From a virus (taxonomy: Duplodnaviria > Heunggongvirae > Uroviricota > Caudoviricetes), in the IMG/VR virus record IMGVR_UViG_2740892439_000009: 64,000 nt of DNA, one strand, 5' to 3'. Positions within the stretch are counted from its first letter, which is position 1. Each line of letters starts with the position of its first letter. Made by a program: the position numbers and the translations under genes. The notes below the pieces were generated by a model. That model was not told the origin of the DNA. It ran no database searches and saw nothing but the letters and a program-made list of their open reading frames with translations. Positions 1 through 64,000 of the stretch are shown piece by piece.

Positions 1-186
1 TGTCTGCACCTTTCTGAAGAAAACGGTGTAACTGGTCTGTACGGCGGCGAAAACGCCGGTATCGTTGTGGAAAACATCGGCACTGTTCAGAACAAAGACG
101 CAGTACGTACTCGTGTGAAGTGGTACTGCTCTCTGGCCAATAAGCACGATAAGGCTATCGCTGCACTGACCAATGTAAAAATTTAA
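1..186 (+). CDS. Partial CDS, 3' end of an upstream structural gene (possibly major capsid protein by lambda-like synteny)
   Basis: Frame open from window start to TAA at 184-186; followed by GC hairpin and T-run. Confidence 0.4.
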   Translation, partial: CLHLSEENGVTGLYGGENAGIVVENIGTVQNKDAVRTRVKWYCSLANKHDKAIAALTNVKI

Positions 187-217
187 TCAGTGCAGTAGAT
201 AAGTAATTATCTATGTT

Positions 218-247
218 AAAGGGTGGGCTATACGCCCACCCTTTTTG
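218..247 (+). terminator. Rho-independent terminator
   Basis: Stem GGGTGGGC / GCCCACCC followed by TTTTT. Confidence 0.6.
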
Positions 248-259
248 TAGGAGCGAGAA

Positions 260-1180
260 ATGCCAGAACAAAAGATGAAGATTACGGAAGAGGCATTTTC
301 GGATTTTACGGGGCATATGTGCCGTGCCGGATTTACCAATTCTATCTCCGATGAACCTTTAACCGAGCGACAACAAAGTCAGCTATCTGCTTGTTTGCAG
401 GCGGTTCCCTTCTCCCAATCCGTAAACATAACCCCGGCTTCACCGTCAGTTTTGGTTGGGAAAACTGTTCAACTTAGTGCAGGTATTACTATGGGTAAGA
501 GTGCCAGTTCATTCACCTGGAAGTCAGCCAATGATCAAATTGCAACCGTCAACGGCACTGGATTAGTAACTGGCGTAGCACCAGGCAAAGTGGAAATTAC
601 CGCAACTGATCAGGAAACCCAGCTTTCCGCATCAGTGGAAGTCACCGTAAATCCGGTAGCCGTTCAATCCGTAACGGTAACGCCAGACTCAACCTCTGTT
701 GAGAAAGGGAAATCAGTCAGTCTGAAAGCGAATGTTCAGCCGTCAAATGCGACGAATAAGGCAGTTACCTGGTCTTCCAAAAATGAAGACAAGGCAACGG
801 TAGACCAGAGCGGGAACGTTACTGGTGTAGAAGTTGGCACTGCGACGATTGAGATCGTTTCCCAAGATGGCAGCAAAAAGGCAACTGCAACGGTGGAAGT
901 AACTGCGCCTGTTGTGGCTGTTACCGGCGTCGAAATCGACCCAAATAGCACAACCGTTGAGGCAAACAAAACTGTTCAGCTGACCGCAAATGTCGAGCCG
1001 GCAGGAGCCACAAATAAAACCGTTACTTGGGAATCCAAAAATACCGAGTTTGCAACGGTTGACAGCGAAACCGGTGTTGTAACTGGTGTTGCGGCTGGTA
1101 CTGCCACAATCGAGGTTACTACCCAAGATGGTAGCCACAAAGCGACAGCAACTGTAGAAGTAACTGCCGCACAGGAATAA
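260..1180 (+). CDS. Virion-associated protein with three tandem Ig-like (Big_2-type) repeats, possibly capsid decoration
   Basis: Repeated VTVTP/VTGV..ATNK.VTW.S...ATVD..G.VTGV..G.A.I motifs typical of bacterial Ig-like domain 2. Confidence 0.6.
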   Translation: MPEQKMKITEEAFSDFTGHMCRAGFTNSISDEPLTERQQSQLSACLQAVPFSQSVNITPASPSVLVGKTVQLSAGITMGKSASSFTWKSANDQIATVNGTGLVTGVAPGKVEITATDQETQLSASVEVTVNPVAVQSVTVTPDSTSVEKGKSVSLKANVQPSNATNKAVTWSSKNEDKATVDQSGNVTGVEVGTATIEIVSQDGSKKATATVEVTAPVVAVTGVEIDPNSTTVEANKTVQLTANVEPAGATNKTVTWESKNTEFATVDSETGVVTGVAAGTATIEVTTQDGSHKATATVEVTAAQE

Positions 1181-1224
1181 CCGATATTGGGCGGCTTTCG
1201 CCGCCCAAGTGGAGAGAAAGCGTT

Positions 1225-1659
1225 ATGAAACCAGCAAAAATTGTTTTATTAGAACCGCAATTTTCCGGTTATTCGGGAATGTTGTGCGGCGTTCAGTTCG
1301 AGAACGGGGTGTCCGTAGCGGAGTTGCCTTTTATCGATCAGCAAAGGATTTGTGCCTCAATGCGAGCATCAACAGTCGAGGGCAAAAATGTTTCTCCGTC
1401 TGCCGCATACAGTGATCGTGGCGAGTTGACCGCAGACCTGATTACCGAGCCAGCAGCACCTGACATTGTACCAATGAAACGTGGGACACCAGATGAACCG
1501 GCCAAACAGATCCAGACTTTCACACGAGAAGAGTTGGAGTCAATTGCAGACAATGAAGGCATTGCCGGTCTACGTGTGATTGGTAATCAGGTTGGTGTCA
1601 AAGCGAAAGGAATTGTCGAGATGATTGAAGGCATCCTGAAAGCACAAGGCGGTGAGTAA
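1225..1659 (+). CDS. Hypothetical head-module protein
   Basis: ORF in operon; stop overlaps next start. Confidence 0.45.
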   Translation: MKPAKIVLLEPQFSGYSGMLCGVQFENGVSVAELPFIDQQRICASMRASTVEGKNVSPSAAYSDRGELTADLITEPAAPDIVPMKRGTPDEPAKQIQTFTREELESIADNEGIAGLRVIGNQVGVKAKGIVEMIEGILKAQGGE

Positions 1660-2492
1660 TGGCGCAGATCGACTCGTATCGTAGCGGTGAAGCTGTTTCC
1701 CTTTCATTTGCCTTCAACGTGCTGGATATCGAATCTGCTACCTACACAGTAAAGGACAGCACCGGGGCTATTCTCGTTGATGGCGAGCCGCTAGAAATTA
1801 CCAGCGGTCAAATGTCGATTCCGGTTGTTGTGTCGGCTGAATATAACCAGCTCTCTGAGAAAGAGCGAGATCTGCGGTACGTCATTGTGAAGGCTGTTGC
1901 ATCGGGCCTGACGCATGAAGAGCGTCAAATGTATGTTCTGCTGAATAGTTTTGAACTGTCGATACCAGAACAGTCGTTTGCAACTGTCGCTGATGCTCAA
2001 ATGCAGGCGATCGATATGCTGAATGGGGACACTTTGCTGTCGGATGGTGAAGGCTTAATGCGCAAGCGTCTCATTGAGGCTACCAGACGAATTAAAACTT
2101 TACCGTTCTCAATCCGCAAAATTCTACGTATCGACTTTGACCGATACGATCGCCCTCAAAATATGCTGAATGTGTATGACATTCCGTGGGGAGCAGATGG
2201 AGCGTACCGGCATGATTTAGTCGATTGGGAAAAGATGACGCAGGAGAAGTTTGAAGAGTTCCCTGACTACTTCAAAGAAGCGTTGATGCTTGCCGTTGTC
2301 AACGAAGCGTGTGAGATCGCAAATGGCAATGATGTAGCCGCAGCACGAGAGGATGGCATTTTGTCAGAGTCCATCGGTGAAACAACCAACATGTACCGTA
2401 CCGGTAAAGCTGCAAACGTGCATGTGGCTCGTAGTACCTGGCGCTTGCTGGTCAGTTACATCAACAACCGTATGATTGTTCGCCGTGCGTAA
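1659..2492 (+). CDS. Hypothetical head-module protein
   Basis: 277-aa ORF, start overlaps previous stop. Confidence 0.45.
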   Translation: MAQIDSYRSGEAVSLSFAFNVLDIESATYTVKDSTGAILVDGEPLEITSGQMSIPVVVSAEYNQLSEKERDLRYVIVKAVASGLTHEERQMYVLLNSFELSIPEQSFATVADAQMQAIDMLNGDTLLSDGEGLMRKRLIEATRRIKTLPFSIRKILRIDFDRYDRPQNMLNVYDIPWGADGAYRHDLVDWEKMTQEKFEEFPDYFKEALMLAVVNEACEIANGNDVAAAREDGILSESIGETTNMYRTGKAANVHVARSTWRLLVSYINNRMIVRRA

Positions 2493-2571
2493 CGCCAGTC
2501 GCATTATTTACTTTTGGTCTAAAGGGTTTTTGGCCAGTAATGAGAGCGACCGACAACAACAGGGAGAGAGC

Positions 2572-2916
2572 ATGAATATTTCATGGCAAACAGAAATTGC
2601 GATCTACCGCTTTGGCGCAAAGAACGTTTACGGTGAGGCGCAATTACAATTCGTCAGGAAGACGAATGTCGGCGTGGTTAAGTTCGAACAGAGTAATGAG
2701 AAATCGTCAGTTCGTGCTGATAGCTCTGGTAGTCGTGGTAAGGCGAGTCTGGAGCTGTTTGATGCTGTGTTAGTTGTCCCTTTAGAAGCGGCTGTACAAC
2801 TTGATGATGTACTGATCCTTGAAGGTCAAAAATTAAAGGTGTCCAGTGTTCATCGCCGCTGGGGGCTACGAGGAAGACCTGGGCATCTTGAAGTAGGGGC
2901 GAATATATGGGTCTGA
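2572..2916 (+). CDS. Putative head-tail joining protein (FII-like by position)
   Basis: ATG at 2572 preceded by AGGGAGAGAG; ORF track frame 2476..2916; synteny only. Confidence 0.4.
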   Translation: MNISWQTEIAIYRFGAKNVYGEAQLQFVRKTNVGVVKFEQSNEKSSVRADSSGSRGKASLELFDAVLVVPLEAAVQLDDVLILEGQKLKVSSVHRRWGLRGRPGHLEVGANIWV

Positions 2917-3380
2917 AATACGATGCGCATCAGTTCAAACGTGCGGGGAATAGACTCAACAACAGCCAGAAAGCATTTAAGCGATATCTTATTCGGGACA
3001 TGGAAAAGCTGGCGCGTTTGGTTGAGCGCCTCAGCCGTGCAATGGCCCCGCTGGAAACCGGATCTCTGGAGACAGCCATCTTTGCCAGGGTGATTAAAGA
3101 AGGTTATTCAGGGCTGCGCATTGAGCTTTCTGTGTCTGGAGCAAAACCACGTCAGGGGCATCCGGGCGTAGAAGTCGGTGACTATGCTAAGTACATGGAG
3201 CTGGGTAAATACCGACTCGGTTATCTTTCTCGAATGAAGAACGTGACAAACCCACCAATTGCCGGTGTTAAACCTCGTGTTGGGCCACACTTTCTGGAAA
3301 GAGCGGTGGAAATTAGCGAGAAGCAGTTCTCAGAAGCGATTCTTGAGGCTGCCAGAAAAGCCGGTTTTACGAGAGGTTAA
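2907..3380 (+). CDS. Putative tail completion protein (Z-like by position)
   Basis: 157-aa ORF overlapping neighbours; synteny only. Confidence 0.4.
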   Translation: MGLKYDAHQFKRAGNRLNNSQKAFKRYLIRDMEKLARLVERLSRAMAPLETGSLETAIFARVIKEGYSGLRIELSVSGAKPRQGHPGVEVGDYAKYMELGKYRLGYLSRMKNVTNPPIAGVKPRVGPHFLERAVEISEKQFSEAILEAARKAGFTRG

Positions 3381-3381
3381 T

Positions 3382-3765
3382 GTGTTTATTGAAGCGTTTG
3401 CAAGTTTGATGCAGAAGGCAAAGATTGGCACGGTCGGGACTGACATTTTCTGTCACTACTTGCCTGCCAATGTGAAATCTGGCGTCCTGCTTATTAACCC
3501 AAATACCGGCATCAGCATCGATCATGAGCTACAGGGCTTTTATCACGAATCATTCACAATCATTGTGCGTGGTTCGTCAATTACTACGACGGTTGAGAAA
3601 GCCAATAAAATCATTGAGATGTTTCCAGTAGAGGAAACGGAATCTGGTGGTGTGTATTTTCGACTTGTACGACCGATGGCGATGCCAATCATTTATCCCA
3701 AAAATGATGGGGCATTAATAGAAGCAGGCATTCCTGTTGAATTTGCTGGCTATTTATTGAATTAA
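3382..3765 (+). CDS. Putative tail terminator (U-like by position)
   Basis: GTG at 3382 after GAGAGG; same frame as ORF 3259..3765; size about 127 aa. Confidence 0.4.
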   Translation: MFIEAFASLMQKAKIGTVGTDIFCHYLPANVKSGVLLINPNTGISIDHELQGFYHESFTIIVRGSSITTTVEKANKIIEMFPVEETESGGVYFRLVRPMAMPIIYPKNDGALIEAGIPVEFAGYLLN

Positions 3766-3839
3766 CTCAATTGGTAAGTATATACTTACTATTAGCGCAA
3801 TGAATGCGTAGAATTAACGGAAAAAGGAGTTTTCCATCA

Positions 3840-4586
3840 ATGTCTAATACCCATGTAAAAAACATCAAACTTGGTGCCTGTAAGGTGTCGTTTGGTGGTG
3901 TGGATTTGGGTTACACCAAAGGTGGTGTTCAGGTTGAAATCGCAACCGAAACGCTGAAAGTGACCGTAGACCAGCTGGGCCAGACCACGATCTCCGAGCT
4001 GATCCAGGGCCGCAACATCACCATTACTGCGCCGCTGGCTGAATCCGTGTTGAAAAACATGGTCGATCTGATGCCAGGTTCCACGCTGAGTTCTGGCGAA
4101 GATACCGTAACCATCACGTCTGCGCAGGGAGTGAACCTGATCGACGTTGCGAAAGAGTTGGTGCTGACCCCGCAGGATGCGACGGATTATGTTCTGACCA
4201 TCCCTAAAGCAGCAACCGCGGGTAACTTCACCATGACCTACCAGTCTGACGACGTTCGCGTGTTCTCAGTTGAGTTTTCCGCTTACCCGGACGACGCTGG
4301 CGTGTTGGGGAAAATGAGCCTCCCAAAGCCGGTTGAGAGCGTCACGCTGACCCCGTCTTCACCGACCGTAAAAGTGGGCACTAAAGTTCAATTGAGCGCA
4401 ACCTTCACCCCGGCCGATGCAACCAATAAGACTGGCGTGTGGAGCTCTGATGCGACTGATAAAGCGACCGTAGATCAGAACGGACTGGTAACTGGTAAAG
4501 CTGTCGGTTCAGCCAATATCACCTTCACAACTAATGACGGTGCCAAGAAGGCGACCAAAGCCGTCTCTGTAACTGCCGCAAGCTAA
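3840..4586 (+). CDS. Major tail protein (lambda V-like) with C-terminal Ig-like domain
   Basis: ATG 3840 after AAAGGAG; C-terminal Big_2-like motif (VTLTPSSPTVKVGTKVQLSATFTPADATNKTGVWSS); position before chaperone and tape measure. Confidence 0.6.
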   Translation: MSNTHVKNIKLGACKVSFGGVDLGYTKGGVQVEIATETLKVTVDQLGQTTISELIQGRNITITAPLAESVLKNMVDLMPGSTLSSGEDTVTITSAQGVNLIDVAKELVLTPQDATDYVLTIPKAATAGNFTMTYQSDDVRVFSVEFSAYPDDAGVLGKMSLPKPVESVTLTPSSPTVKVGTKVQLSATFTPADATNKTGVWSSDATDKATVDQNGLVTGKAVGSANITFTTNDGAKKATKAVSVTAAS

Positions 4587-4647
4587 ATTGTGATAACCCA
4601 AGAGGCCCATGGATGGGCCTCTGTATGAGTTTAAAAGGATTTAAACC

Positions 4648-4965
4648 ATGACCAAATTACTCGATCTCGACTCCATTCTGCCGCCGAAAAAAAGCATCAA
4701 ATTTGGTGGCAAAGAATATCCCATCGTTGAAATGACCGTCGGCCTCTTTGTTTCCATCAAGCAGATGGAAGGCAAAGATCTCATGAACATGTCTCCTGTT
4801 GAGCAAGTGACAGCTTATGCAGATCTGGTTCGTAAGGTTATCCCTTCAGTACCTGACGAAGTTCTTGAAAAACTGACTGTTCCGCAACTCCAGCAGATCT
4901 TCACCTTCGCTATGGAAGTGATTGATGAAGAAAACGAAAAAGCGGCTGGCGAAGGGGCAAAGTAA
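4648..4965 (+). CDS. Tail assembly chaperone (G-like)
   Basis: 105-aa acidic ORF between major tail and tape measure genes. Confidence 0.5.
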   Translation: MTKLLDLDSILPPKKSIKFGGKEYPIVEMTVGLFVSIKQMEGKDLMNMSPVEQVTAYADLVRKVIPSVPDEVLEKLTVPQLQQIFTFAMEVIDEENEKAAGEGAK

Positions 4966-5315
4966 TTTCCCGCGATGAATCCGGGACAAGGACCGTCTCA
5001 ATAGATCTCGGATTCTATTTCAGTCGTGTAGTTGCTCACTACGCCGTGTCGCCATTAGAGCTACTGAACGTTCCTCTCACGATGTTCTGGATGCTCAGTC
5101 GCAATATAGACCGTCTGCGTGCGGAAGAGGATGTCCGCAACTTACAAGTCGCTCGTGCGTCCCAGGCGGATGGCGAGGCTGTGAAGGCGTTCATGGAGGG
5201 TTTGCAACTCAGGATTGGAAGACCAGTCGTAACAGATAAAGTCTACGATCCAAGCCAGGATAAGGCAGACCCTGACGCCAAAGAGCAACTGATGCAAATA
5301 TTTGGCAGAGGATGA
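4929..5315 (+). CDS. Possible T-region reached by -1 frameshift from the G-like chaperone
   Basis: -1 frame opens at 4929 inside the 3' end of the G-like ORF and runs to 5315; no canonical slippery heptamer seen. Confidence 0.25.
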   Translation, partial: RKRKSGWRRGKVISRDESGTRTVSIDLGFYFSRVVAHYAVSPLELLNVPLTMFWMLSRNIDRLRAEEDVRNLQVARASQADGEAVKAFMEGLQLRIGRPVVTDKVYDPSQDKADPDAKEQLMQIFGRG

Positions 5316-5622
5316 CAAGGGAATGTCACAAAACGTAGAGTTTATCCTGTCGCTGGAAGACAAACAGTTTACAGCGTCAATCGATCGTGCGGGGAAACTG
5401 CTTACTCGATTTGGTGAGCAGGTAACAAAGCCTGCTCAAAAAATCCAAACCTTTGAACGCTCTTTGGGTTCGGTCGCCCGTATCATTGGCGTTCTGGAAA
5501 GCAAGCTCGATTCTACGGCAGATAAACTACAGGATGTAGCTGCCGGTTTTGAGCTTGCTTCAGATGCTACGCGTAAAATGCGTGGCAACATCACCAGCCT
5601 CAATTCTGGTCTTAAAGCCTGA
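5302..5622 (+). CDS. Tape measure protein, N-terminal segment
   Basis: Coiled-coil-like ORF; the next frame opens at 5616 and continues the same sequence character. Confidence 0.45.
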   Translation: MAEDDKGMSQNVEFILSLEDKQFTASIDRAGKLLTRFGEQVTKPAQKIQTFERSLGSVARIIGVLESKLDSTADKLQDVAAGFELASDATRKMRGNITSLNSGLKA

Positions 5623-5681
5623 TTGAGCGCGTCGATACGACAACTTCTTCAGTAGATAAACTCACCGCGTCATTACGTAAA

Positions 5682-7415
5682 GTGCAATCAGAGCTAAATG
5701 ATTTCTCTGATTGGGCGACCTATGCAAGCAAAAGCGCAAGCCGCTTTGGTACGGAGGTCAAAGAAGCCTCTGCGTCCGTGAGTGGCATGAATACGCGCCT
5801 TAATACCACGACGAAGCGACTCAGTAATTGGGGTGTCACAACGAGTCAGGCTGCCGAGGGACTGAAAAAGGTTCGTGAGCAGATGGACGAAGTTATCGGA
5901 CGTCAGCAACTGATTAGCAAGCCGGTACGCGTTCGTACATCTGGAAGTGGCGATGGTGGTAGCGGGCGGCGTAGCGGCGCTTCTGGCCATAGCGGTAAAA
6001 GTAACGAAGGAGGTATGTTCTCTGGCCTTCGTGGCAACATTTTCCTGCTTGGCGAGATCGGAGATGCAGCCAGAACGGTTACTGACATCATGTTTGGGTG
6101 GCAGAAGCCTATTGTTGAAGCTGCGGCCGAAATGGAACGTATGCGGGTGATGCTTCGAGGGTTGAATAAGGAGAAGTCCAACCCGGGCCAGGCTGCCGCT
6201 GATGATATGAAGTACATCGTAGACATGGCTCAAAATGCGCCGTTCGCGATGCAGGCGTTAACAGACTCCTTCGTGAAGTTTCGTTCTGCTGGCTTAGATC
6301 CAACCGATGGTTCTCTGAAGGCGCTGGTGGACTCCGTTGCTCGTTTTGGTGGTGATAGTGAGCTGTTGAAACGTGCGGCTGTGGCCGTTCAGCAGATGTC
6401 CGGTAAGGGCGTTGTGTCAATGGAAGAGCTACGTCAGCAATTAGGTGAAGCCGTTCCTAACGCGATGCAGGCAATGGCAGACGCCGCAGGCATCACTATG
6501 GGGGAACTGACTAAAGCCGTTGCCAGCGGTACGGTTGAGGCAAAACAGGCGTTGTCTCTGATGTTTGTTGGTCTGCGTGCGGAGAATGAGAACGCAGCGA
6601 AAGACATGATGCAAACCTACACAGGTGCGCTGGCGCAACTTCAGACGTCATTCACGTTATTTGCTGATCGGGTTGGTCAGGCCGGATATCTGGATTCTCT
6701 ATCGAAGGGGATGAAAGAACTGGCTTCAATCATGAATAGCGCCGAAGGGATTTCGTTTGCCAATTCTTTAGGTTCGGGGTTAACAACGGCAATCGATGGG
6801 TTGCGTCAGCTTGCTCAATGGTTAGCAAAGAACCAAGAGCTGGTAATTAATCTCGGTAAGGTCGTGGCCGCGATGGTTGCGTTCAAACTGATGCGAGCAG
6901 GGATCATGGGGGTAGTTGGCGCTGGGAGCCAGATGGTTAGCACCTTTGCCACGATGGCGACCGCCATACAGACTCCATTTAACCTCGGCGCTACAGCAGT
7001 AACTCGATTCAATCGTGCGGCACGTATGGGGCTGGCTCCGATCCCCTCTCTTATTTTCGCCATCCGTGGGGCGATTACGGGGCTTAAAGGCGCTTTTGCT
7101 GGATTAACGGCGTTCATTGCAGCAAACCCTATAGGGGCAGCATTTACAGTTGCCACTGTAGCTGTTGCTGGCCTAATCACGTACATGACCATGCTCCGCA
7201 GCGAAACTTCAAAGGTCGTTGACGAGATTAGGAAAATACCAGAAGCGATGACAGCGGCCAAACGTGCACAAATGGCCGACCGCGCAGAAAAGCTCGAAAA
7301 GCAGATTCTTGCTGATCAACGAGCATTAAAAACTGGTGAGGGTGTTAATTACGTATCTAACTCTGCCGGTGTTATTACTCACAAAGAGTCGAAGCTGACA
7401 TCGAAGCACGCCTGA
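5682..7415 (+). CDS. Tape measure protein, middle segment
   Basis: Gly/Ser-rich stretch, long hydrophobic segments, position upstream of M/L/K/I/J. Confidence 0.65.
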   Translation: MQSELNDFSDWATYASKSASRFGTEVKEASASVSGMNTRLNTTTKRLSNWGVTTSQAAEGLKKVREQMDEVIGRQQLISKPVRVRTSGSGDGGSGRRSGASGHSGKSNEGGMFSGLRGNIFLLGEIGDAARTVTDIMFGWQKPIVEAAAEMERMRVMLRGLNKEKSNPGQAAADDMKYIVDMAQNAPFAMQALTDSFVKFRSAGLDPTDGSLKALVDSVARFGGDSELLKRAAVAVQQMSGKGVVSMEELRQQLGEAVPNAMQAMADAAGITMGELTKAVASGTVEAKQALSLMFVGLRAENENAAKDMMQTYTGALAQLQTSFTLFADRVGQAGYLDSLSKGMKELASIMNSAEGISFANSLGSGLTTAIDGLRQLAQWLAKNQELVINLGKVVAAMVAFKLMRAGIMGVVGAGSQMVSTFATMATAIQTPFNLGATAVTRFNRAARMGLAPIPSLIFAIRGAITGLKGAFAGLTAFIAANPIGAAFTVATVAVAGLITYMTMLRSETSKVVDEIRKIPEAMTAAKRAQMADRAEKLEKQILADQRALKTGEGVNYVSNSAGVITHKESKLTSKHA

Positions 7416-7486
7416 AAAAAAATCAGGAAGAGTATCAAAAGATAACCGGCACGATAGCTCTTGGTGACGGCGCTGTAGCAAAGCGT

Positions 7487-9844
7487 TTGGCTAAAGAGGC
7501 TGCCGAATCTCAGATTGAGAAAATTCGAGCGGAAAACCAGATTTTCGCGGCAACATTCGTGAAAGCCCGGCAGGAGGCTCTGGATAAGATCCAGAAAATC
7601 AATGATGACGGTTCACTTTCAGATGATGAAAAGAACAAGCTATTGGCACCGTTACGTGAAACGGTAAACAAAAGCTATCTTGAGCCTGCGCAAAAACTGG
7701 TTGATTCACTTTCTTCTCGTAAGAATGCGACCGAGAAGCAAATCGCGACTCTTAATGATCAGCTTGAAAAAGCCAAAAAGGATGGAAATACCGAGCAGAT
7801 CCAGAAACTGCAAGGCAGTATTCGTGGTTATCAGGAGCATTTGGAAGCCGTTGCTCAGGAGCTGACTCAGGCAGAGTTCGAGAGAGATAACGCGGCCAAA
7901 ACTGGTAAGGGCGTAATGTCAAACCAGGGGACTGTTCTTGGGTTAGGTACAACTGATAAAGCTGCTCAGAAGGCGCTGGCGCAATATATGCGAAACCAGA
8001 TGGATTCTGCGACTTATCAACGTACTTTGCCTGACGGCACTCCGATGATGGACTTCGAAGGTAAGCCGATTATTGGGCCTAAACAACTCAAGACGCAGCT
8101 TAATTTGCAGAAAGCATCCAGTGCCAGCTCTCTGGAGAAAATGAGCGATGAAGAGCGTGCCGCAGCCATTGCTGCACTGACTAAAGCTCGTGAACAGGAT
8201 GCAGCAGCCGCCGAGAAAGCAGCCCAACGATCAGCTAACGCCTCGCAGCGTGCGGCCAAGAAGGAACAGGCAGCGCAACAGAAATTGGCAGCCGGATACC
8301 AGAAGGCTCTGGACAAAGCCGATCAGCTTATGGGGCAAATGGGTGAAAGTTCAAAGGCCACCGTGTCGTTTGATCAGTCGCTGCGTGATGTCACTAAGTC
8401 ACTAACCGATCTTGCAAACGCCACGCCTAACGAGTTTATCTCGCAGGAGATGGTTGACCAGGCTAAAAAACGTCTCGCGGATTTGAGGAACGCTACCCCC
8501 GAATACAGTGAAATGTTTAATCGCCGCAACGTCGAGCAAATGATCAGCGCTTGGGCGCCGGAATCGGATTCGATTATCAGCGCAGGCTTGATGCAAAGCC
8601 ATGAGGAGAAGGCTGCAGAGTTTTCGGATACCTACAACCGCAATCTTAAGGCGCTGATCGAGCTGCGTGATAAGGCGACTGACCCGAAAATCATCTCGCT
8701 TTACAACAAGCAGCTTAATCAGCTGGTGGCCGCTGGCAATAATGCGCTGATTAAGCAAACAGGTACAGCGACCCAGCAGTTGGCTCTGGAGTATGAGAAC
8801 CTGGCTGAGCAGATTGAGGGCACCTGGACAGATCTGTTTAGCGGCTTAACTGACACGCTTACTGACTTTGTTGTTAACGGAAAGATGAGCTTCTCCAGTC
8901 TGGCCACATCGATCCTTAAAGACATCACCAACATGGTCGTGAAGACCCAGATCACTCTGCCTCTCATGAATATGTTGGGAATGGGAACGACAAACGCCGG
9001 CAATGCACAAAGTGGAAATCTCATGAATAGCGTAGCGTCTGCGATCGCTAATCAAGGGGTTCAGCTAGGTAATTCTGGTGGGTCGGTGGCCAATGGGGAT
9101 AAATCTGTCGGCGAGGCCACTAAGGAGACAGCCTCCGGCGTGAATTCGATGGGGCAAGCGTCTCAGAATGCGGCCAGTGGTTTAAGTCAGGCGGTGAATG
9201 GCGTCTGGGACTGGACTAAGTCATTGTTCACCGGTACTGACGCTACGAAAGATCAAACCAAAGCGGTTAACAGCAGCATCCTCAGTATGGGGAATCTGTC
9301 TACCGCGGCTGGGGCGCTGGCAGCTACATTCGCCATGGTAGGTGCTTCGTCGTCGAGTTCGTCCAGCCGTTGGCTGAATTTCGGTCTGTCACTGGCCAGT
9401 ACCGCAGTGTCCGCCTGGGCTGGGTCTTCGACGCCATCAGGCTCAAAGCCAAATGTGAAGAAGCACGCCAATGGCGGCATCTTTGGCAGGGAAGGGGTTG
9501 TGCCTCTGAGAGCTTATCAGAAAGGCGGAATTGCCACCTCACCACAGTTGGCGATGTTTGGCGAGGGCTCAATGAACGAGGCTTACGTTCCGTTGCCAGA
9601 TGGTCGAACCATTCCAGTCACACTTTCTGCAGAGTCGGCTGGAAAGAGCACGGGTAACGCGGTGTCCCCTGTCTCGATTCAGATCAATGTAACCAAGGAT
9701 GGCCGAACCAGCGAGAGCAGCAGTGGAAGCGAGAGCAGTCTCTGGAACGGCGCAGCACGGCAAATCAAGTCGATTGTGCTTGAGACGATTGCCGAAGAGA
9801 AACGTTCTGGTGGTTCACTTAATCCGCATACCACCAGAGGGTAG
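7487..9844 (+). CDS. Tape measure protein, C-terminal segment
   Basis: Frame open from 7361; long coiled-coil-like region; frame changes next to an A8 run at 7415-7422. Confidence 0.65.
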   Translation: MAKEAAESQIEKIRAENQIFAATFVKARQEALDKIQKINDDGSLSDDEKNKLLAPLRETVNKSYLEPAQKLVDSLSSRKNATEKQIATLNDQLEKAKKDGNTEQIQKLQGSIRGYQEHLEAVAQELTQAEFERDNAAKTGKGVMSNQGTVLGLGTTDKAAQKALAQYMRNQMDSATYQRTLPDGTPMMDFEGKPIIGPKQLKTQLNLQKASSASSLEKMSDEERAAAIAALTKAREQDAAAAEKAAQRSANASQRAAKKEQAAQQKLAAGYQKALDKADQLMGQMGESSKATVSFDQSLRDVTKSLTDLANATPNEFISQEMVDQAKKRLADLRNATPEYSEMFNRRNVEQMISAWAPESDSIISAGLMQSHEEKAAEFSDTYNRNLKALIELRDKATDPKIISLYNKQLNQLVAAGNNALIKQTGTATQQLALEYENLAEQIEGTWTDLFSGLTDTLTDFVVNGKMSFSSLATSILKDITNMVVKTQITLPLMNMLGMGTTNAGNAQSGNLMNSVASAIANQGVQLGNSGGSVANGDKSVGEATKETASGVNSMGQASQNAASGLSQAVNGVWDWTKSLFTGTDATKDQTKAVNSSILSMGNLSTAAGALAATFAMVGASSSSSSSRWLNFGLSLASTAVSAWAGSSTPSGSKPNVKKHANGGIFGREGVVPLRAYQKGGIATSPQLAMFGEGSMNEAYVPLPDGRTIPVTLSAESAGKSTGNAVSPVSIQINVTKDGRTSESSSGSESSLWNGAARQIKSIVLETIAEEKRSGGSLNPHTTRG

Positions 9845-9887
9845 TAAAGCAGGCCGCCTTAACGGGCGGCCATCACAAGGAAGTGAT

Positions 9888-47764: not shown

Positions 47765-47780
47765 ATAAAACAGCCTTAAT

Positions 47781-47802: not shown

Positions 47803-47859
47803 TTAATGGTATATTTATATAAGAAGTTGAACGCTCATTAGAGAACAAAGGAAAAACGC

Positions 47860-54241: not shown

Positions 54242-54265
54242 AAGGCGGCTAATGCCGCCTTGAAA

Positions 54266-56368: not shown

Positions 56369-56441
56369 GAAGGAGTGTACCGGTGAATTATCTCTTCGTA
56401 GATGGCAATAGCTGGGTTATTACCACCAACAATCTGACAAA

Positions 56442-57326
56442 TTGCACAACGGCGAAATGGAAGTACAGGCTGCTTTCGGCTTTGTTAAGAACGTCCGTCG
56501 TTATGCCTCCATCCTCCATGCCCGACCTATGATTCTTTGGGATGGATTTAGTGACAAGCGTCGCGACTTTTACCCGGACTACAAAGCAAATCGCGACGAC
56601 GATCCTGATATGAAAAAGATGAAGGAAGGCTTTGCTATCCAGAAGCCATACATCCTCAAAATGATGACCGCGCTTGGAGTTACCCAACTCATTGCAAAAG
56701 ATGCAGAAGCGGATGATCTGGCCGGGCTGCTGGTATCCCGCATGGCACCGCAGCCAACCGTTGAACACATCTATCTGTTAACAGGCGATAGCGACTGGCT
56801 TCAGTTAGTTCGCGAAAACGTAAGCTGGGTAAGCCTGCGCGAAGACGCCAAAAACAAGCAGGTTAATTTTGAGCAATTTGCGGAGCTGACAGGATTCGCT
56901 ACTCCTCGCGCATTTTTGGAAGCAAAAGCATTACAAGGCGATAAATCGGACAACATTAGCGGTGTTGGTGGCATTGGTGCTGGCGGTGCGAAAGAGCTGC
57001 TGCATGAATGGGGAAGTGTCGCAACGATGGTACGCGGCATCAACGACGGCTCAATCGTGGTTGACAAAGGACGCCATAAGACCGCCTTCAACAAACTAGC
57101 GAAGAATGCCTTCAACGAGAAAACAGGCTGTCGAATGCTCGAAGCGTTCAAGAGAAACATCACGCTAATGAACCTGATTGAGACGAAGTTTCCGCCTACC
57201 GAAATCGAAACAATCAAAGGCAATCGTGACGTGAAAGCATTCGAGCAACTGTGCTACGAGCTGAATTTCCGTTCGTTCCTTGAAGACCTTGAAGTGTTTG
57301 TTCTTCCATTCGAAAGGTATTGCTAA
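56442..57326 (+). CDS. 5'-3' exonuclease / flap endonuclease (FEN, RNase H-like)
   Basis: LLTGDSDWLQL and DKSDNISGVGGIG motifs; expected N-terminal motif (NYLFVDGNSW, GTG 56383) lies in a different frame. Confidence 0.65.
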   Translation: MHNGEMEVQAAFGFVKNVRRYASILHARPMILWDGFSDKRRDFYPDYKANRDDDPDMKKMKEGFAIQKPYILKMMTALGVTQLIAKDAEADDLAGLLVSRMAPQPTVEHIYLLTGDSDWLQLVRENVSWVSLREDAKNKQVNFEQFAELTGFATPRAFLEAKALQGDKSDNISGVGGIGAGGAKELLHEWGSVATMVRGINDGSIVVDKGRHKTAFNKLAKNAFNEKTGCRMLEAFKRNITLMNLIETKFPPTEIETIKGNRDVKAFEQLCYELNFRSFLEDLEVFVLPFERYC

Positions 57327-57594: not shown

Positions 57595-58668
57595 ATGGCA
57601 AAAGGAAAATCCGCACTGGCACTTGCTCTGAAAAAGAAAATCGGTAGCAACGACGAAATTCAGAAAGTAACTCATTGGATTGACACAGGCTTTCCTCCGT
57701 TAAACAAAGCTATTTCTGGTCGTTACGATGGCGGCTTCCCATGTGGTCGTATCGTCGAAGTATTCGGTCCTCCAAGCGCGGGGAAAACGTTCCTTGCAAC
57801 AGCAGCGATGATCTCCGCTCAAAAACAAGATGGTCTGGCGGTATTCCTCGATCATGAAAACAGTTTTGACGTTGGCCTGGCTGTAGCCAATGGCCTGAAC
57901 GCAGATGAGGATGACGGTCAGTGGGTATACAAGCAGCCAGATACCTTCGAAGACTCTGTAGAGTTGATCGGCACAATACTTAAATTGGTTCGTGATGAAG
58001 AGCTTATCCCCGAATCAGCACCTATCTGTATCGTGGCTGACTCTCTTGCGTCTATGGTTCCGAACTCCAAAGCCGAGAAGTTCGAAAAGATGGCTGAAGG
58101 CACTGCCAAAGACAAAGATCAGCTAAACATGAACGACAATACGGCACTGGCTCGTGCGACGAGTGCGAACTTCCCTACTCTGGCTTTGTGGGCACGCAAA
58201 TACAACGCCTGCATCATCTTCTTGAATCAGGTTCGCACAAAAATCGGTGTAATGTTTGGCGACCCTACTACGTCGCCAGGTGGAGATTCACCGAAGTTCT
58301 ACGCTTCTGTACGTATCCGTCTTGGTGCATCGGTGATGAAGGATGGTAAAGAGAAGATCGGCCAGGACGTAGGCGCAGAATGCATCAAAAACAAAGTTGC
58401 ACCACCGTATGGCAAATGCACCTGGAAATTCTACTTCGATCCTACTCGTGGCCTCGACGTTATCGAATCGCTCGTCGAGTACATGCTGGAAGAAGGATAC
58501 CTGCCAAAGAACGCCAGCGGGCGAGTTGAAATTGGTGACAAGAAATACACAAAATCGCAGATCGTCGAGATGTATCGGGAGAAGCCACTGGCTGAAATCA
58601 TTGCGGCTTTGCAGGCAATCGACGACCGAAGAGCAAAAGACAACCCCACCGAGTCAGTAGAAGAGTAA
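57595..58668 (+). CDS. RecA/UvsX-like recombinase
   Basis: GRIVEVFGPPSAGKT Walker A region and overall pattern parallel RecA. Confidence 0.75.
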   Translation: MAKGKSALALALKKKIGSNDEIQKVTHWIDTGFPPLNKAISGRYDGGFPCGRIVEVFGPPSAGKTFLATAAMISAQKQDGLAVFLDHENSFDVGLAVANGLNADEDDGQWVYKQPDTFEDSVELIGTILKLVRDEELIPESAPICIVADSLASMVPNSKAEKFEKMAEGTAKDKDQLNMNDNTALARATSANFPTLALWARKYNACIIFLNQVRTKIGVMFGDPTTSPGGDSPKFYASVRIRLGASVMKDGKEKIGQDVGAECIKNKVAPPYGKCTWKFYFDPTRGLDVIESLVEYMLEEGYLPKNASGRVEIGDKKYTKSQIVEMYREKPLAEIIAALQAIDDRRAKDNPTESVEE

Positions 58669-61193: not shown

Positions 61194-61450
61194 TGGCATT
61201 AACACTGGCAGGTCTGGAAATCGAGAAAACAAGCGGCTACTGGCGTGCTAAGGGTTTCAAGCAGCCTGGCATTCTTGAGCGTCTGGAACGTGAAGATGGG
61301 TATATCGTCCACCAGCGGCGTGAATGGCGTATGTACGATCCAGAAACAGGAAACTGACTACAAAAGCCGGAACACTTTGGGGTCTGTTAAAGAAAATACA
61401 CTAAATGCAAACTGACTGCGGCACGTTCCGCAGTCATATTTCATAGTCGT

Positions 61451-61985
61451 CACCGCTGACAGCATACACAATCAACTACCGCTGATAGCATATCGAGAGT
61501 CTATCTCACCGCTCACAGCATACTTTACTCGATTTTTTACCGCTGACAGCATACTTAAGACATTGCATGAATAATGTGTACCGGTATGGGTATAACCAGA
61601 ACAAAATTACCGCTGGCAGCATACGAAGGTCTGACATATGCCATTAATTACCGCTGATAGCATATCCAAACAAAAATTCCTCAATAAAACACCGCTGACA
61701 GCATACATTCTATCAGAGAGTAGCAGGCAATAAATGCCTTTCACTACAAGCAATCAGCGCAATAGCAATAGAATGTTAGTGAGCGCAAACCTATATGGAA
61801 TGCACTCTTCGAGGTTAGTAACCACTGGGGAGGTATGACAGAGCATTGAGTGGTGATAGATGATTTACCGCTCACAGCATACGTTCATCTCACTATACCG
61901 CTGGTAGCATATCTTTAACCGTTCACAGCATACTTTTCAGAAAAATAGCCGCTGATAGCATACATTTCACCGCTGACAGCATATC
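61451..61985. repeat. Iteron array (12 copies, consensus about yACCGCTGACAGCATAC) downstream of repA
   Basis: Copies near 61451, 61478, 61507, 61538, 61607, 61647, 61690, 61865, 61896, 61917, 61947, 61969. Confidence 0.8.
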
Positions 61986-63078
61986 AAAGCAGTTTGAGAC
62001 TATTGGAAAGGATCTCAATCATCTTGATATTTTCAGGCGTCAAATTCTGCGAAAGTTCAGTTATCTTGTTGATAATGTTCTGTTTGGCATCAATTTCCCC
62101 GGCTTTCTCATCTGGTTTTTTGGGTTCGATGTCTTCAGGTTTTGGCGGTGCGACTTTGAGTTTTGGATTGCGGCTGTGAATCTGGATATAGATCGACCGC
62201 CCACGCTTAATCTCGCTGTATTCGAGATAGCCCAAATCTTGGAGAGCTTTTAAGCCGTTACGTATAGTCTGATTCTGCGAGCTGACATTCCTGCTACTCA
62301 AATTGAGTCGCGCACGCAATCGAGCAAGCGATACCGGCGCAGGCTTGGTTGGAAGACTTTCGATGAAGGTGTACAGAGCCTGTGCTGTTTCTTTGCGTGG
62401 TAGCTTATTGATAACCTTTAACTGCAAAAGAACCTTATGGTCAAAGCGATATAGTTCGGCCAGCTTCGGTTCTGCATAGAACACCACCGTATCTTTCTGC
62501 TCGTTGTAGTCCACGCTATTGATGAGGTGCACCATCAGAAGCGAGATCTTGTTAGAGCCGTCGACGTTCTTTTCTTCATACGTTCTCTGGAAAGACAGAG
62601 TTGTACGCATGATCTTCAAAAGACTGTTTGTAAGCCGGTCGCGGAGTGTTTTGCGGATCTGTGACGATGGATAGCCACAAAACTTCGCAAATTTCGTGAT
62701 GCTTAACTCGACACGACCATTAGGTTCGCCGTATTCTGCCAGCGAACGCACAACGCCCACCCACGTTTTGAAATCATGATCCATGTCCAGGCGAGGACCG
62801 GTTATCTTGATATCGGAATAGCCTTCAGAACGGGCTACTTCGAGCTGGACAAGCTCCTTTGAAGCATCGATCTCATTTGGCTTGTTACGTTTACTGTATT
62901 TTGTTCCCTTAAGCGTGGGGACGAACAACCCCAGTCGCATCAACGCAATTGGTTGGACTGTATTGTTGCTATTAGGGACAAGTTCCCCTGTGTACAATTC
63001 AAGGGAACCTTCTTCAAAGTTGTCGATGTTATCTTCTACTTCTTTGTTATTTTTACCTTTTTTATTTTTTGTGGACAT
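61984..63078 (-). CDS. repA: Plasmid replication initiator RepA (iteron-binding)
   Basis: Flanked on both sides by iterons; ATG (MSTKNKKGKNNK) preceded by AGGTG; track ORF extends to 63198. Confidence 0.65.
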   Translation of the reverse strand: MSTKNKKGKNNKEVEDNIDNFEEGSLELYTGELVPNSNNTVQPIALMRLGLFVPTLKGTKYSKRNKPNEIDASKELVQLEVARSEGYSDIKITGPRLDMDHDFKTWVGVVRSLAEYGEPNGRVELSITKFAKFCGYPSSQIRKTLRDRLTNSLLKIMRTTLSFQRTYEEKNVDGSNKISLLMVHLINSVDYNEQKDTVVFYAEPKLAELYRFDHKVLLQLKVINKLPRKETAQALYTFIESLPTKPAPVSLARLRARLNLSSRNVSSQNQTIRNGLKALQDLGYLEYSEIKRGRSIYIQIHSRNPKLKVAPPKPEDIEPKKPDEKAGEIDAKQNIINKITELSQNLTPENIKMIEILSNSLKLL

Positions 63079-63098
63079 GTGGACACCTTTGTCATTCA

Positions 63099-63200
63099 AC
63101 CGCTGACAGCATACTTGATTTGCCGCTGACAGAATACCAAAAACAGTTGGCAGCATACGGTGAACCGCTGACAGACTATCAATTACCGCTGACAGCATAC
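63099..63200. repeat. Origin-proximal iterons (4-5 copies) upstream of repA
   Basis: AACCGCTGACAGCATAC, TGCCGCTGACAGAATAC, GAACCGCTGACAGACTAT, TTACCGCTGACAGCATAC plus a partial copy. Confidence 0.75.
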
Positions 63201-63240
63201 ATGAACATGGCTTCAGACCAGTCGTGGCGCGGCTTACAGC

Positions 63241-63313
63241 GATCGGGGATCTTATTTGATCTATACAAGGATCTATCTATGGATCTCTTTATTAGGATCT
63301 ATCCTGTGGATAT
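63241..63313. other. Candidate replication origin: six GATC sites in about 60 bp plus a DnaA-box-like ATATCCACA
   Basis: GATC at 63241, 63248, 63258, 63270, 63282, 63296; DnaA-box-like 9-mer on the minus strand at about 63301-63313. Confidence 0.55.
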
Positions 63314-63399
63314 GTGAATAATTAAAACAGGCATTTACTACCTTCGGCGCACCTGGTGGGTTATCGTTGCCTCGGCTAACAATCACAGAAAAATGACAT

Positions 63400-64000
63400 A
63401 TGGATCTAAAACGCACGCGCTGGGTTCGTCGTCTTGAAGACGGCTCCTACACTATCGAATCAAATTCCAACCTGAATAAGCAGAAGTTGCTTTGTGACAT
63501 CTGCGGTATAGCGGCGAAGTGCCCGATCTACGAAACCAGAATTAAACTTGATAAGGCTGGTGTGAATTTTCATTTAAACAGTTGCATCAGGTACGTTCCA
63601 TTACTCGCATTTCGTAAACCGATCATCGGATTGGATGCTCCCTACTTCAACACACTCCGTTCAGGTGTGACGTGGCGAGATCGTTTATCACCAGACAAGC
63701 TGATTTGCCTTGTATCCGCAGACACAGGGAAAATCATCCGTTTTGGGAAAGTAGACAAGGTTTACTCAGGTCCAGTAGACGAAATGTTACGGAAACACAG
63801 CCGGTTTAATCATCTCTGTATGGGTGGTGAGAAAATCGAAAAGGTGGAAGAAGTGATCCGCAAATCCTACGGACACTTCCTGACCAAAGATAGCCTGCTC
63901 ACCGCAATCTACATCAGACATGTAAAACGTGAGTTCGACCTCGAATACCACAGTGAAGAAGAGCTTAACCTTGTTGACCCACGTCCAAAAGCTGGCGTCA
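63400..64000 (+). CDS. Partial CDS running off the window end
   Basis: ATG at 63400 with open frame to 64000; no stop inside the window. Confidence 0.4.
   Translation, partial: MDLKRTRWVRRLEDGSYTIESNSNLNKQKLLCDICGIAAKCPIYETRIKLDKAGVNFHLNSCIRYVPLLAFRKPIIGLDAPYFNTLRSGVTWRDRLSPDKLICLVSADTGKIIRFGKVDKVYSGPVDEMLRKHSRFNHLCMGGEKIEKVEEVIRKSYGHFLTKDSLLTAIYIRHVKREFDLEYHSEEELNLVDPRPKAGV

Follow-up and report, generated by a model that had tools for sequence, protein, structure and literature searches.

The stretch analysed here, 64,000 nucleotides of DNA from the IMG/VR virus record IMGVR_UViG_2740892439_000009 (Caudoviricetes; hereafter the window), carries the genes of a tailed phage together with genes of plasmid maintenance, which raises the question of whether it derives from a phage-plasmid and, if so, from which type. 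A preliminary description of the window had read it as a phage-plasmid in which a tailed-phage body is combined with plasmid maintenance modules, and had likened it to both the SSU5/pHCM2 type and the P1 type. Profile searches recovered each of the components that it had listed. Taken as a whole, the window is best explained, with a probability of roughly 93%, as about 64 kb of a temperate siphovirus of about 110 kb that belongs to the E. coli branch of the SSU5 supergroup and persists as a low-copy, non-mobilizable circular plasmid. It amounts to about 60% of an ordinary SSU5-type phage-plasmid, with E. coli and its relatives as hosts.

We reassembled the complete genomes of SSU5, the E. coli plasmid pECAZ155_2 and P1 from fetched loci and searched them by tblastn with 63 gene segments of the window, counting a segment as having a homologue where the match covered at least half of its length. 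The numbers of segments with a homologue were:

SSU5: 53 of 63, collinear
pECAZ155_2: 58 of 63
P1: 3 of 63

The whole-genome comparison that had been proposed thus decides for the SSU5/pHCM2 type over the P1 type (53 against 3 segments), and the suggested likeness to P1 shrinks to RepA and its origin, a Cra-like gene and the C-terminus of the helicase. The SSU5 homologues mostly share 70-96% amino acid identity and stand in the same order. At the DNA level, identity to SSU5 is about 80% across 36-56% of the tested segments, with 79.8% over positions 1-8991 and 80.3% over 56% of the last 25 kb. Over 88-94% of their length, the first 25 kb are about 92% identical to SSU5-like phage-plasmids of Klebsiella, and the last 25 kb (39001-64000) match Escherichia phage Cyrano (pLF82) at 97.1% over 81%. 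The closest single record is pECAZ155_2 (NZ_CP019002.1; circular, 112,917 bp), which is 99.4% identical over window positions 1-27834 and 99.9% identical over 29030-36981. The plus strand is an almost unbroken run of genes, and the co-occurrence of phage and plasmid modules is not a matter of chance, since known circular phage-plasmids are collinear with the full 64 kb.

The element is, by its sequence, a member of the SSU5 supergroup of phage-plasmids described by Pfeifer et al. 2021 (PMC7969092), in that it has the collinear gene repertoire, a lambda-like non-contractile tail with a lysis module, and plasmid replication and partition on the same molecule. Its nearest neighbours, pECOH89 among them, appear to place it in the E. 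coli branch; the tail-tip module itself is Klebsiella-like. The tool tyPPing (PMC12977533) recognises the pSLy3 type of the E. coli branch by a size of 85-134 kb together with at least 47 of the 95 protein profiles specific to that type. Both the kind and near-identical members are already present in public databases and in the literature, and because SSU5-type elements and near-identical copies are known, the novelty of the element is low.

The relatives of the window are found on plasmids. Of 5426 complete E. coli genomes, 236 contain sequence resembling positions 1-25000, and the 249 places concerned are all on plasmids and none on a chromosome. A module consisting of a recombinase gene and a helix-turn-helix (HTH) protein gene (43610-45094) occurs in 252 of the 5426 genomes, at 254 places, again all on plasmids. 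The preliminary description had named chromosomal attL/attR junctions as the observation that would speak against a phage-plasmid; because the matches of the relatives in complete E. coli genomes are all plasmid-borne, we found no indication of such junctions. In PLSDB, 1332 of 1394 matching plasmids are non-mobilizable. The recombinase module is present in 841 plasmids from Klebsiella, Escherichia, Enterobacter, Yersinia, Salmonella and other genera, mostly of 100-120 kb among the matches listed. Exact copies of the AbiGi partner protein, which the window encodes at 40803-42907 together with an AbiGi-family protein, occur in 1107 blocks of the assembly collection, of which 637 have a longest contig of 50-200 kb, 3 one of 0.2-1 Mb and 0 one above 1 Mb. 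The relative Cyrano/pLF82 is maintained at 5.5 copies per cell, is induced 39-fold by ciprofloxacin and produces virions, as shown by quantitative PCR and transmission electron microscopy (PMC9928086).

The tailed-phage body comprises the following virion and lysis genes:

1-186, plus strand: 3' end of the major capsid gene (similarity to SSU5)
260-1180, plus strand: Ig-like decoration protein (Pfam Big_2)
within 1-5315, plus strand: head-tail connector and neck genes, and two small genes in the tail-chaperone position
3382-3765, plus strand: tail terminator (Pfam Phage_tail_terminator_6)
3840-4586, plus strand: Ig-domain major tail protein
5323-9846, plus strand: tape measure protein (Pfam TMP_3; a single coding sequence of 1507 amino acids in pECAZ155_2)
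9890-10223, plus strand: tail protein M (Pfam Phage_min_tail)
10312-11008, plus strand: tail protein L (Pfam Phage_tail_L, E 5e-91)
11003-11798, plus strand: tail protein K (NlpC/P60, NLPC_P60, and JAB, Prok-JAB, domains)
11786-12397, plus strand: tail protein I (annotation of pECAZ155_2)
12416-24574, plus strand: giant J-like tail-tip fibre protein (GpJ FNIII-A, Phage-tail_3, Phage_Tail_Tip; a single coding sequence of 4052 amino acids in relatives)
24631-26065, plus strand: tail fibre with a C-terminal S74 intramolecular chaperone (Pfam Peptidase_S74)
26144-26479, plus strand: candidate holin (C-terminal transmembrane segment)
26466-27185, plus strand: endolysin (PHROG phrog_873, E 1e-87)
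27188-27439, plus strand: Rz-like i-spanin (PHROG, E 2e-24)
27360-27587, plus strand: candidate lipoprotein, Rz1-like o-spanin, overlapping the Rz-like gene (lipobox seen in the translation)

The genes of 1-5315 share 83-96% amino acid identity with, and are collinear with, SSU5_005-014, and their roles were taken also from the RefSeq annotation of pECAZ155_2. The transmembrane segments and the lipobox of the lysis cassette were read from the translations; SSU5_026-030, annotated as holin, endolysin and spanins, match the cassette at 26144-27587. The lambda-like tail genes and the lysis cassette of the preliminary description are hereby borne out, with the tape measure, M, L, K and J proteins recovered by Pfam searches and the endolysin and Rz-like spanin by PHROG searches, protein I named from the annotation of pECAZ155_2, and the holin and Rz1-like protein as candidates.

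Over about 9-25 kb, which takes in the tail tip and the fibre, identity to Klebsiella phage-plasmids is 92-97%, with a maximum of 96.8%, and of the 236 E. coli genomes that match, just 15 cover at least 80% of the first 25 kb. Because the tail tip is 92-97% identical to the Klebsiella elements but the replication half only about 79%, it looks as though the tail-tip/host-recognition module was recently exchanged between Klebsiella and E. coli lineages, an exchange that would bear on host range. Two observations concern the neighbouring lysis genes. A hydrophobic helix lies at the C-terminus of the endolysin, and the sole transmembrane helix of the putative holin is likewise C-terminal (26144-27185), an unusual arrangement for a holin-endolysin pair. 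Between the lysis cassette and parA, at 27831-28960, are two overlapping genes for proteins of 130 and 250 amino acids (PHROGs 2594 and 3307), a fast-diverging pair that is only about 30% identical to the pECAZ155_2 and SSU5 genes at the same position.

The plasmid replicon and partition genes are:

61446-61983, no strand assigned: iteron array of at least 11 copies (core ACCGCTGACAGCATA) where P1 has incA, downstream of repA
61984-63198, minus strand: repA replication initiator (Pfam Rep3_N)
63093-63321, minus strand: origin core with iterons, heptamers and DnaA-box-like sequences
29137-29805, plus strand: small ParA ATPase of 222 amino acids (Pfam MipZ/AAA_31/CbiA)
29137-30164, plus strand: partition pair of ParA and a partner of 119 amino acids

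Read on the repA strand, the origin runs from tandem DnaA-box-like sequences (TTATTCACATATCCACA) through five AGATCC/AGATCA heptamers with GATC and four iterons into repA, and from there into the array of at least 11 iterons. The four upstream iterons have the same core and lie at the 5' end of repA, at 63093-63199; because the annotated ATG overlaps them, the true start of repA is probably downstream of it. The layout is that of P1 oriR (incC-repA-incA), with DnaA boxes, five GATC heptamers and iterons on both sides of repA, and the window thus holds a replicon of the P1 RepA/oriR type. In P1 oriR, initiation and autoregulation depend on the iterons upstream of repA, and the array downstream of it keeps the copy number down; by analogy, the iteron arrays of the window may work in the same way. 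RepA itself is 100% identical to that of E. coli phage CMS-2020a (residues 41-404), 99.8% identical over its full length to that of PhiR41_1, about 84% to those of Klebsiella relatives, 48% to those of SSU5 and Cyrano, and 43.5% to P1/P7 RepA (E 6e-64). Within the SSU5 supergroup, RepA alleles have been swapped. ParA and its partner, which is possibly a ribbon-helix-helix protein, are 91-93% identical to SSU5_033 and its neighbour. A centromere repeat array was sought beside parA, and no convincing one was found. The repA gene with iterons and the parA gene with a partner that had been described earlier are both present, in the form of a Rep3_N protein with 4 plus at least 11 iterons and of a ParA-family ATPase with the 119-amino-acid gene.

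The replication and recombination set comprises:

33172-34488, plus strand: DnaB-like helicase (Pfam KaiC/ATPase)
34498-35751, plus strand: primase (Pfam DNAG_N/Toprim_2)
37144-38466, plus strand: ATP-dependent DNA ligase (Pfam DNA_ligase_A_M), with two further genes between primase and ligase
45657-49095, plus strand: CobT-like protein and CobS/MoxR-like AAA+ ATPase (Pfam CobT, AAA_5)
49275-52793, plus strand: DnaE-type DNA polymerase III alpha subunit (Pfam PHP, DNA_pol3_alpha, finger, HHH_6)
54745-55176, plus strand: UvsY-like mediator (the name given to the corresponding gene in the Cyrano record)
55294-56322, plus strand: gp32-type SSB (Pfam gp32, E 2e-67)
56383-57326, plus strand: 5'-3' exonuclease/FEN (Pfam 5_3_exonuc_N/5_3_exonuc)
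57595-58668, plus strand: RecA (Pfam RecA, E 2e-42), with a small open reading frame (ORF) between FEN and RecA

The set had been called unusually complete, and Pfam searches found all of its members, namely DnaE, helicase, primase, ligase, SSB, FEN and RecA. Several of these genes differ among the relatives. The RecA ORF of Cyrano (20101-22440 of its locus) encodes 779 amino acids against 357 in the window, and this difference in length suggests an inserted element in Cyrano. In some close relatives (loci L137, L141 and L144, at about 14058-16451) an ISEcp1-like transposase and a beta-lactamase gene are inserted in the ligase gene, and in some (loci L137, L140, L141 and L144, at 1-330) dnaE is interrupted by an HNH/NUMOD3 endonuclease gene; neither insertion is present in the window.

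Two further features bear on what else the window might be:

40069-40625, plus strand: tRNA cluster Asn, Tyr, Thr, Ser (ARAGORN; Rfam matches for Asn, Tyr and Thr only)
43610-44713, plus strand: tyrosine recombinase/integrase of 367 amino acids (Pfam Phage_integrase, E 5e-10)

In favour of a P1-type phage-plasmid are the origin layout and a RepA that is 42-43.5% identical to P1/P7 RepA, the Cra-like gene that both share (48% identity), a tyrosine recombinase with an inverted-repeat site, and the adjacent tRNA-Asn/Thr pair that P1 also carries. Yet the three segments that match P1 are only RepA (42%), the Cra-like protein (48%) and the helicase C-terminus against Ban (29%); no window protein matched P1 parA, parB or c1, or the P1 myovirus structural genes (sheath, tube, baseplate, portal, pacAB), in tblastn against the P1 genome; the window recombinase did not match Cre in BLASTP; and the tail of the window is of the non-contractile lambda type. 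With 3 of 63 segments matching, we rejected the P1 type as a family assignment and give it practically no chance. An integrated origin is only a little easier to credit: that the sequence is a prophage inserted in a chromosome through its integrase, with no episome, is very improbable, even though the recombinase is weakly related to CP4-57/P4-type integrases and the tRNA cluster lies 3 kb from it. Neither the structural half nor the integrase module has a chromosomal copy in the 5426 complete E. coli genomes, both ends of the window lie inside phage-plasmid genes that are collinear with circular plasmids, and no direct repeat of a tRNA 3' end was found around the integrase region. Chromosomal integration was rejected on these counts, and the notion of the integrase region as a tRNA-targeting island was likewise set aside, given the missing repeat and the conservation of the module in 841 plasmids from many genera.

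A different matter is whether this copy of the phage-plasmid is still intact, as it contains eleven single-base deletions (5617, 7393, 15599, 23261, 24699, 33998, 46868, 49230, 56412, 59040 and 61353), ten of them coding and one intergenic. Those at 5617 and 7393 break the tape measure gene into three frames, those at 15599 and 23261 split the J-like protein, that at 24699 shifts the frame of the tail fibre, and those at 33998, 46868 and 56412 fall in the helicase, the CobT-like gene and the exonuclease/FEN gene; by alignment, the SPFH and Cra-like genes are also split by single-base deletions and are intact in relatives. Taken as real, these ten frameshifts in genes that relatives keep intact would describe a decaying, defective phage-plasmid that is now a plasmid only, and defective phage-plasmids exist (PMC12977533). 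The signature of the deletions nevertheless looks like that of error. All 11 are private to the window, the 3 to 38 other loci that cover each site having one more base; all are deletions, with no insertions; and 9 of the 11 lie in GG, CC or CCC runs, two of these within CCTGG. The first 25 kb hold 5 unique frameshift deletions to 14 unique substitutions, against 0 frameshifts to 30, 138 and 223 unique substitutions in three relatives with intact genes, and the assembly p13P484A-3, whose frameshifted genes are flagged by RefSeq, is likewise indel-rich, with 11 indels to 1 substitution. Most likely, the frameshifts are uncorrected long-read assembly errors and not decay; true pseudogenisation was rejected as the principal explanation and seems to us improbable. 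On this reading the element is probably intact, and the window is best annotated as a probably intact phage-plasmid in which the apparent pseudogenes are assembly errors.

Some points count against the identification of the window as an intact, plasmid-borne member of the SSU5 supergroup. The window is only part of the element, and its episomal state is read from its relatives. ParA scores under the curated cut-off of NCBIfam ParA_partition (E 2e-33), and its 119-amino-acid partner has only a weak match to aCcr1, without a confident family. The identity of the repressor, the substrate of the recombinase and the control of copy number are matters that we infer, and a HicAB-like assignment, given below, depends on candidate models only. 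Finally, if the ten frameshifts were real, this copy would be unable to make tails or to replicate lytically, and would be a defective plasmid.

The preliminary description had also pointed to a recombinase with a lox-like site. A tyrosine recombinase and a palindromic site are indeed present; the arm of the site is not unique, and the recombinase shows no detectable similarity to Cre (BLASTP, E 2.6) and, in a sequence search, no match to any solved structure. The positions of the R...R/H-x-x-R...H...Y motif are legible in its translation by our own reading, without a curated test. The site and the related motif copies are:

43479-43511, no strand assigned: 13-7-13 palindrome AATGATTCCATAC-CTACTAT-GTATGGAATCATT, the 'lox-like site', 99 bp upstream of the recombinase gene
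38838-38852: half-site 1 of a 15-mer, on the start codon of a gene for a membrane protein of 50 amino acids
39864-39878, plus strand: half-site 2 of the 15-mer, ATGATTCCATACATC, in the non-coding leader upstream of the tRNA cluster
49525-49539: half-site 4 of the 15-mer, antisense in dnaE, over codons C-M-E-S

The palindrome has perfect inverted arms of 13 bp and a 7-bp spacer. It lies about 100 bp upstream of the recombinase gene in every IMG/VR locus fetched that shows this gene and its upstream region, it is found upstream of the same gene in Cyrano, pECAZ155_2, pJN2-26 and pGF66.1-B, and it was found in none of the loci examined that lack the recombinase. A core of 12 bp in the arm is invariant (12/12) even where the recombinase falls to 60% amino acid identity, and at least six different spacers occur. 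We thus have a recombinase with a catalytic domain and, adjoining its gene and co-inherited with it, two inverted arms around a 7-bp spacer, an anatomy that fits simple tyrosine-recombinase site systems (of the Cre/loxP, FLP/FRT and ResD/rfsF type), in which the spacer is 6-8 bp. The recombinase probably acts on this palindrome, and because no chromosomal copies are seen, the likeliest job of the pair would be multimer resolution or circularisation, by analogy with P1, for which Cre does this. The palindrome folds well (z = -8.6). Its arms are invariant in sequence and do not covary, which points to recognition by a sequence-specific protein rather than to an RNA hairpin, and a purely structural RNA or DNA hairpin was rejected.

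The arm is also part of a wider motif, ATGATTCCATAC(ATC), in which the 12-mer is extended to the 15-mer. The 12-mer is found 5 times in the window, where 0.21 copies would be expected, and 0 of 100 shuffles reached that number; in the whole of pECAZ155_2 and of SSU5, all copies fall into a single stretch, about 10.7 kb long in window coordinates, that begins shortly after the ligase gene and ends at the 5' end of dnaE. Apart from the palindrome, the motif is present as three oriented single copies of the full 15-mer, and these half-sites are syntenic in SSU5 and in Klebsiella pJN2-26, genomes that were found without use of the motif. SSU5 keeps the half-sites although it lacks the recombinase and HTH genes; one of its three has a mismatch. 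The antisense copy in dnaE is free of synonymous changes across 13 distinct, diverged sequences, which are not independent evidence for this site because they were selected by an exact match to the 15-mer. No consistent covariation among the sites within one genome was found in the bases 3' of the 15-mer, no match resembling a sigma-70 promoter was found at the half-sites, and no natural recombination product between two sites was found.

These observations allow the palindrome to be seen not as a lox-like target but as a paired operator in a small network of the 15-mer, at the integrase promoter, the tRNA leader, the start of a small gene and the 5' region of dnaE, bound by a postulated regulator common to the supergroup. 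The over-representation and confinement of the 12-mer, the syntenic half-sites in SSU5, which is without the integrase and HTH genes, and in pJN2-26, the unchanged dnaE copy (with the reservation just given) and the invariant, non-covarying arms would all suit an operator. Against it, the palindrome accompanies every int gene whose upstream region is shown and no int-less locus, and arms that stay 12/12 while Int diverges and the spacer is free to vary are those of a classic, simple tyrosine-recombinase site; and SSU5 may be a recent deletion derivative whose half-sites have yet to decay. We regard the operator as possible and do not prefer it to a recombinase target. Rather unlikely, in our estimate, is the more far-reaching proposal that the lox-like site is one element of a conserved network of cis-elements in the SSU5 supergroup, not described before, in which one palindrome and three half-sites would couple the binding of the recombinase or a regulator to expression of the phage polymerase, and hence to the decision between plasmid and lytic states; the palindrome would then not be a simple multimer-resolution site. 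The motif network is the only undescribed item in the window and is not explained by the known systems that we found, and a literature search found no description of the motif or of a recombinase site in SSU5-like elements. It could serve as a handle on the control of recombination or of the switch to lytic growth.

Half-site 1 lies among a group of small genes at 38463-39277 that encode three small membrane proteins and a protein of 71 amino acids (38626-38841), the latter named 'putative transcriptional regulator' in the Cyrano record. The membrane proteins of 59 and 50 amino acids, whose genes flank that of the 71-amino-acid protein, are paralogous, each with a transmembrane helix followed by a G-R/K-x-Y-R-x-V motif; a third transmembrane protein, of 96 amino acids, follows, and then about 790 bp of non-coding DNA and the tRNAs. 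We speculate that the 71-amino-acid protein, encoded directly upstream of half-site 1, is a candidate binder of the motif.

Downstream of the recombinase, two minus-strand loci encode candidate regulators or toxin-antitoxin proteins:

44708-45094, minus strand: XRE/cI-type HTH protein of 128 amino acids (Pfam HTH_19, below threshold)
53642-54490, minus strand: two-gene HicA/HicB-like operon, a candidate toxin-antitoxin or defence pair (PADLOC PDC-M06A, E 1e-19; PDC-M06B, E 2e-32)

A single-sequence AlphaFold2 (AF2) model of the HTH protein (predicted local distance difference test, pLDDT, 73) gave Foldseek matches almost exclusively to XRE/cI-type repressors, among them SaPI Stl, a Salmonella phage repressor, lambda cI and C-proteins, with probabilities of 0.9-0.99 and E values of 0.16-1 that are not significant; some homologues are annotated as XRE family. 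The homologue in Cyrano is a putative repressor that is expressed in the lysogen (PMC9928086). With the weak HTH_19 match and these fold matches, the earlier call of an XRE-type regulator is a reasonable one for the modelled protein, and the protein may be the lysogeny repressor. As for the toxin-antitoxin-like operon, the pair at 53642-54490 matches the PADLOC candidates, and the annotation of phage Cyrano names it HicA/HicB; neither gene has a Pfam or NCBIfam HicA/HicB match at E 0.01 or better, so that this part of the earlier description stands at the level of a candidate. The second gene matches the PHROG 'excisionase and transcriptional regulator'. A single-sequence AF2 model of the HicA-like protein, with a low pLDDT of 62, has the order alpha-beta-beta-beta-alpha; its best Foldseek matches were proteins with a double-stranded RNA-binding domain, at E values of 0.02-0.3 that are not significant, and no HicA structure was retrieved. 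The sequence search against solved structures gave nothing significant for the HicAB-like proteins either.

The remaining accessory genes are found in a variable bay beside the tRNA cluster and at scattered positions elsewhere:

40803-42907, minus strand: AbiGi protein and a partner of 403 amino acids, low-GC accessory cargo
42041-42907, minus strand: AbiGi-family protein (Pfam AbiGi, E 2e-24; PADLOC AbiGi, E 5.5e-47)
43152-43397, plus strand: glutaredoxin (Pfam Glutaredoxin), with an intrinsic terminator after it
30170-30928, plus strand: DUF2971/PDC-S31 candidate anti-phage defence gene (PADLOC, E 4e-38)
30971-32167, plus strand: PD-T7-5 candidate anti-phage defence gene (PADLOC, E 1.5e-139)
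53072-53490, minus strand: cold-shock protein gene with a cspA-type thermoregulatory 5' untranslated region (Pfam CSD, E 4e-33; Rfam RF01766, 185.7 bits)

Homology to diverged relatives ends at the 3' end of tRNA-Asn (40143-40145) and restarts at the palindrome (43477-43480). In the window, the bay thus delimited (40143-43480) holds tRNA-Tyr, tRNA-Thr, tRNA-Ser, the AbiGi gene with its partner, and glutaredoxin. In relatives, it holds other small genes (Cyrano), a YafO-type toxin pair beside the palindrome (pGF66.1-B), or PhoH and others (Klebsiella), and in SSU5 it is empty, because tRNA-Asn abuts CobT. The breakpoint at the palindrome brought to mind cassette capture by the integrase, but no second recombinase site was found at the far end of the inserts, as in the two-gene insert of pGF66.1-B, and because of this such capture is not supported; nor was a motif found at the boundaries of the AbiGi cargo. 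The tRNA-Ser call comes from ARAGORN alone. The tRNA sets differ among the relatives: tRNA-Asn is the only one in SSU5 and pJN2-26, Tyr is missing from Cyrano and pECAZ155_2, and pGF66.1-B has all four. The AbiGi pair, whose 403-amino-acid member has no family match, is absent from SSU5 and pECAZ155_2, and the same pair is widespread elsewhere in the same context. Counting PDC-S31, PD-T7-5, AbiGi with its partner and PDC-M06A/B, a single phage-plasmid carries several known or candidate defence genes. The cspA thermoregulator before the cold-shock gene is of full length, and a csp gene is found at the corresponding position in Klebsiella pJN2-26.

From these parts, a life cycle can be proposed. 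In the plasmid state, RepA would bind the iterons of an origin laid out like P1 oriR, the second, downstream iteron array would limit copy number as in P1, and the small ParA and its partner would segregate the copies. The tyrosine recombinase probably acts on the 13-7-13 palindrome and would so resolve multimers or circularise incoming DNA, and lysogeny may be maintained by the XRE-type HTH protein as a candidate repressor. The accessory genes (PD-T7-5, PDC-S31, the AbiGi pair, the HicAB-like pair, the cold-shock protein and the tRNAs) may add retention or host benefit. After DNA damage, as shown for the relative Cyrano, the element would enter a lytic state in which its own replisome of DnaE, DnaB-like helicase, primase, ligase, SSB, FEN and RecA/UvsY-like proteins copies the genome, lambda-like tails are built with the giant J-type fibre at their tip, and lysis is brought about by the holin, endolysin and spanins. 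As a classification, the assignment adds little, as hundreds of Enterobacteriaceae genomes have already been listed with SSU5-type phage-plasmids, and typing tools for plasmids and phage-plasmids cover them. Such elements matter as carriers of resistance genes, exemplified by the ISEcp1-bla insertion in the ligase gene of close relatives, and of anti-phage defence genes.

Compared with known systems, the window shares single modules with P1 and its overall plan with the SSU5 supergroup. As in Cre/loxP of P1, a tyrosine recombinase adjoins an inverted-repeat site with 13-bp arms; the loxP spacer is 8 bp and not 7 bp, the site sequence is unrelated, and the arm of the site in the window recurs as single half-sites kilobases away. 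In place of the ParA/ParB of P1 there is a ParA of a small type, of 222 amino acids. The Klebsiella pKpn-type phage-plasmids (such as vB_KpnS_p4727, pJN2-26 and vB_Kpn_1825-KPC53) are 92-97% identical in the tail-tip and fibre region and share the module of Int, palindrome and HTH protein; their RepA is 83-85% identical, and the replication half of their backbone only about 79%. The type member SSU5 (NC_018843.1) has the same order of head-tail, lysis, ParA, helicase-primase-ligase, CobT/S, DnaE, SSB-FEN-RecA and RepA genes. It differs from the window in having no integrase, HTH protein, glutaredoxin or any cargo between tRNA-Asn and CobT, a shorter J protein, a different fibre, a RepA that is 48% identical, and one tRNA instead of four.

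Among the E. coli elements, Cyrano has a RepA that is 48% identical to that of the window, and in Cyrano and most E. coli relatives the tail-tip module differs. Both pECAZ155_2 and Cyrano carry other cargo at the position of the AbiGi pair, and pECAZ155_2 is without the HicAB-like pair and the csp gene and has an IS100 insertion in its SSB gene that the window does not have. Its gene order is that of the window over 1-36981, the recombinase module of pECOH89 is 97.6% identical to that of the window, and pECAZ155_2, pECOH89 (NC_023916.1) and pLF82/Cyrano (OV696614.1) all have the layout of tail, lysis, ParA, replisome, Int-HTH and RepA that is seen in the window.

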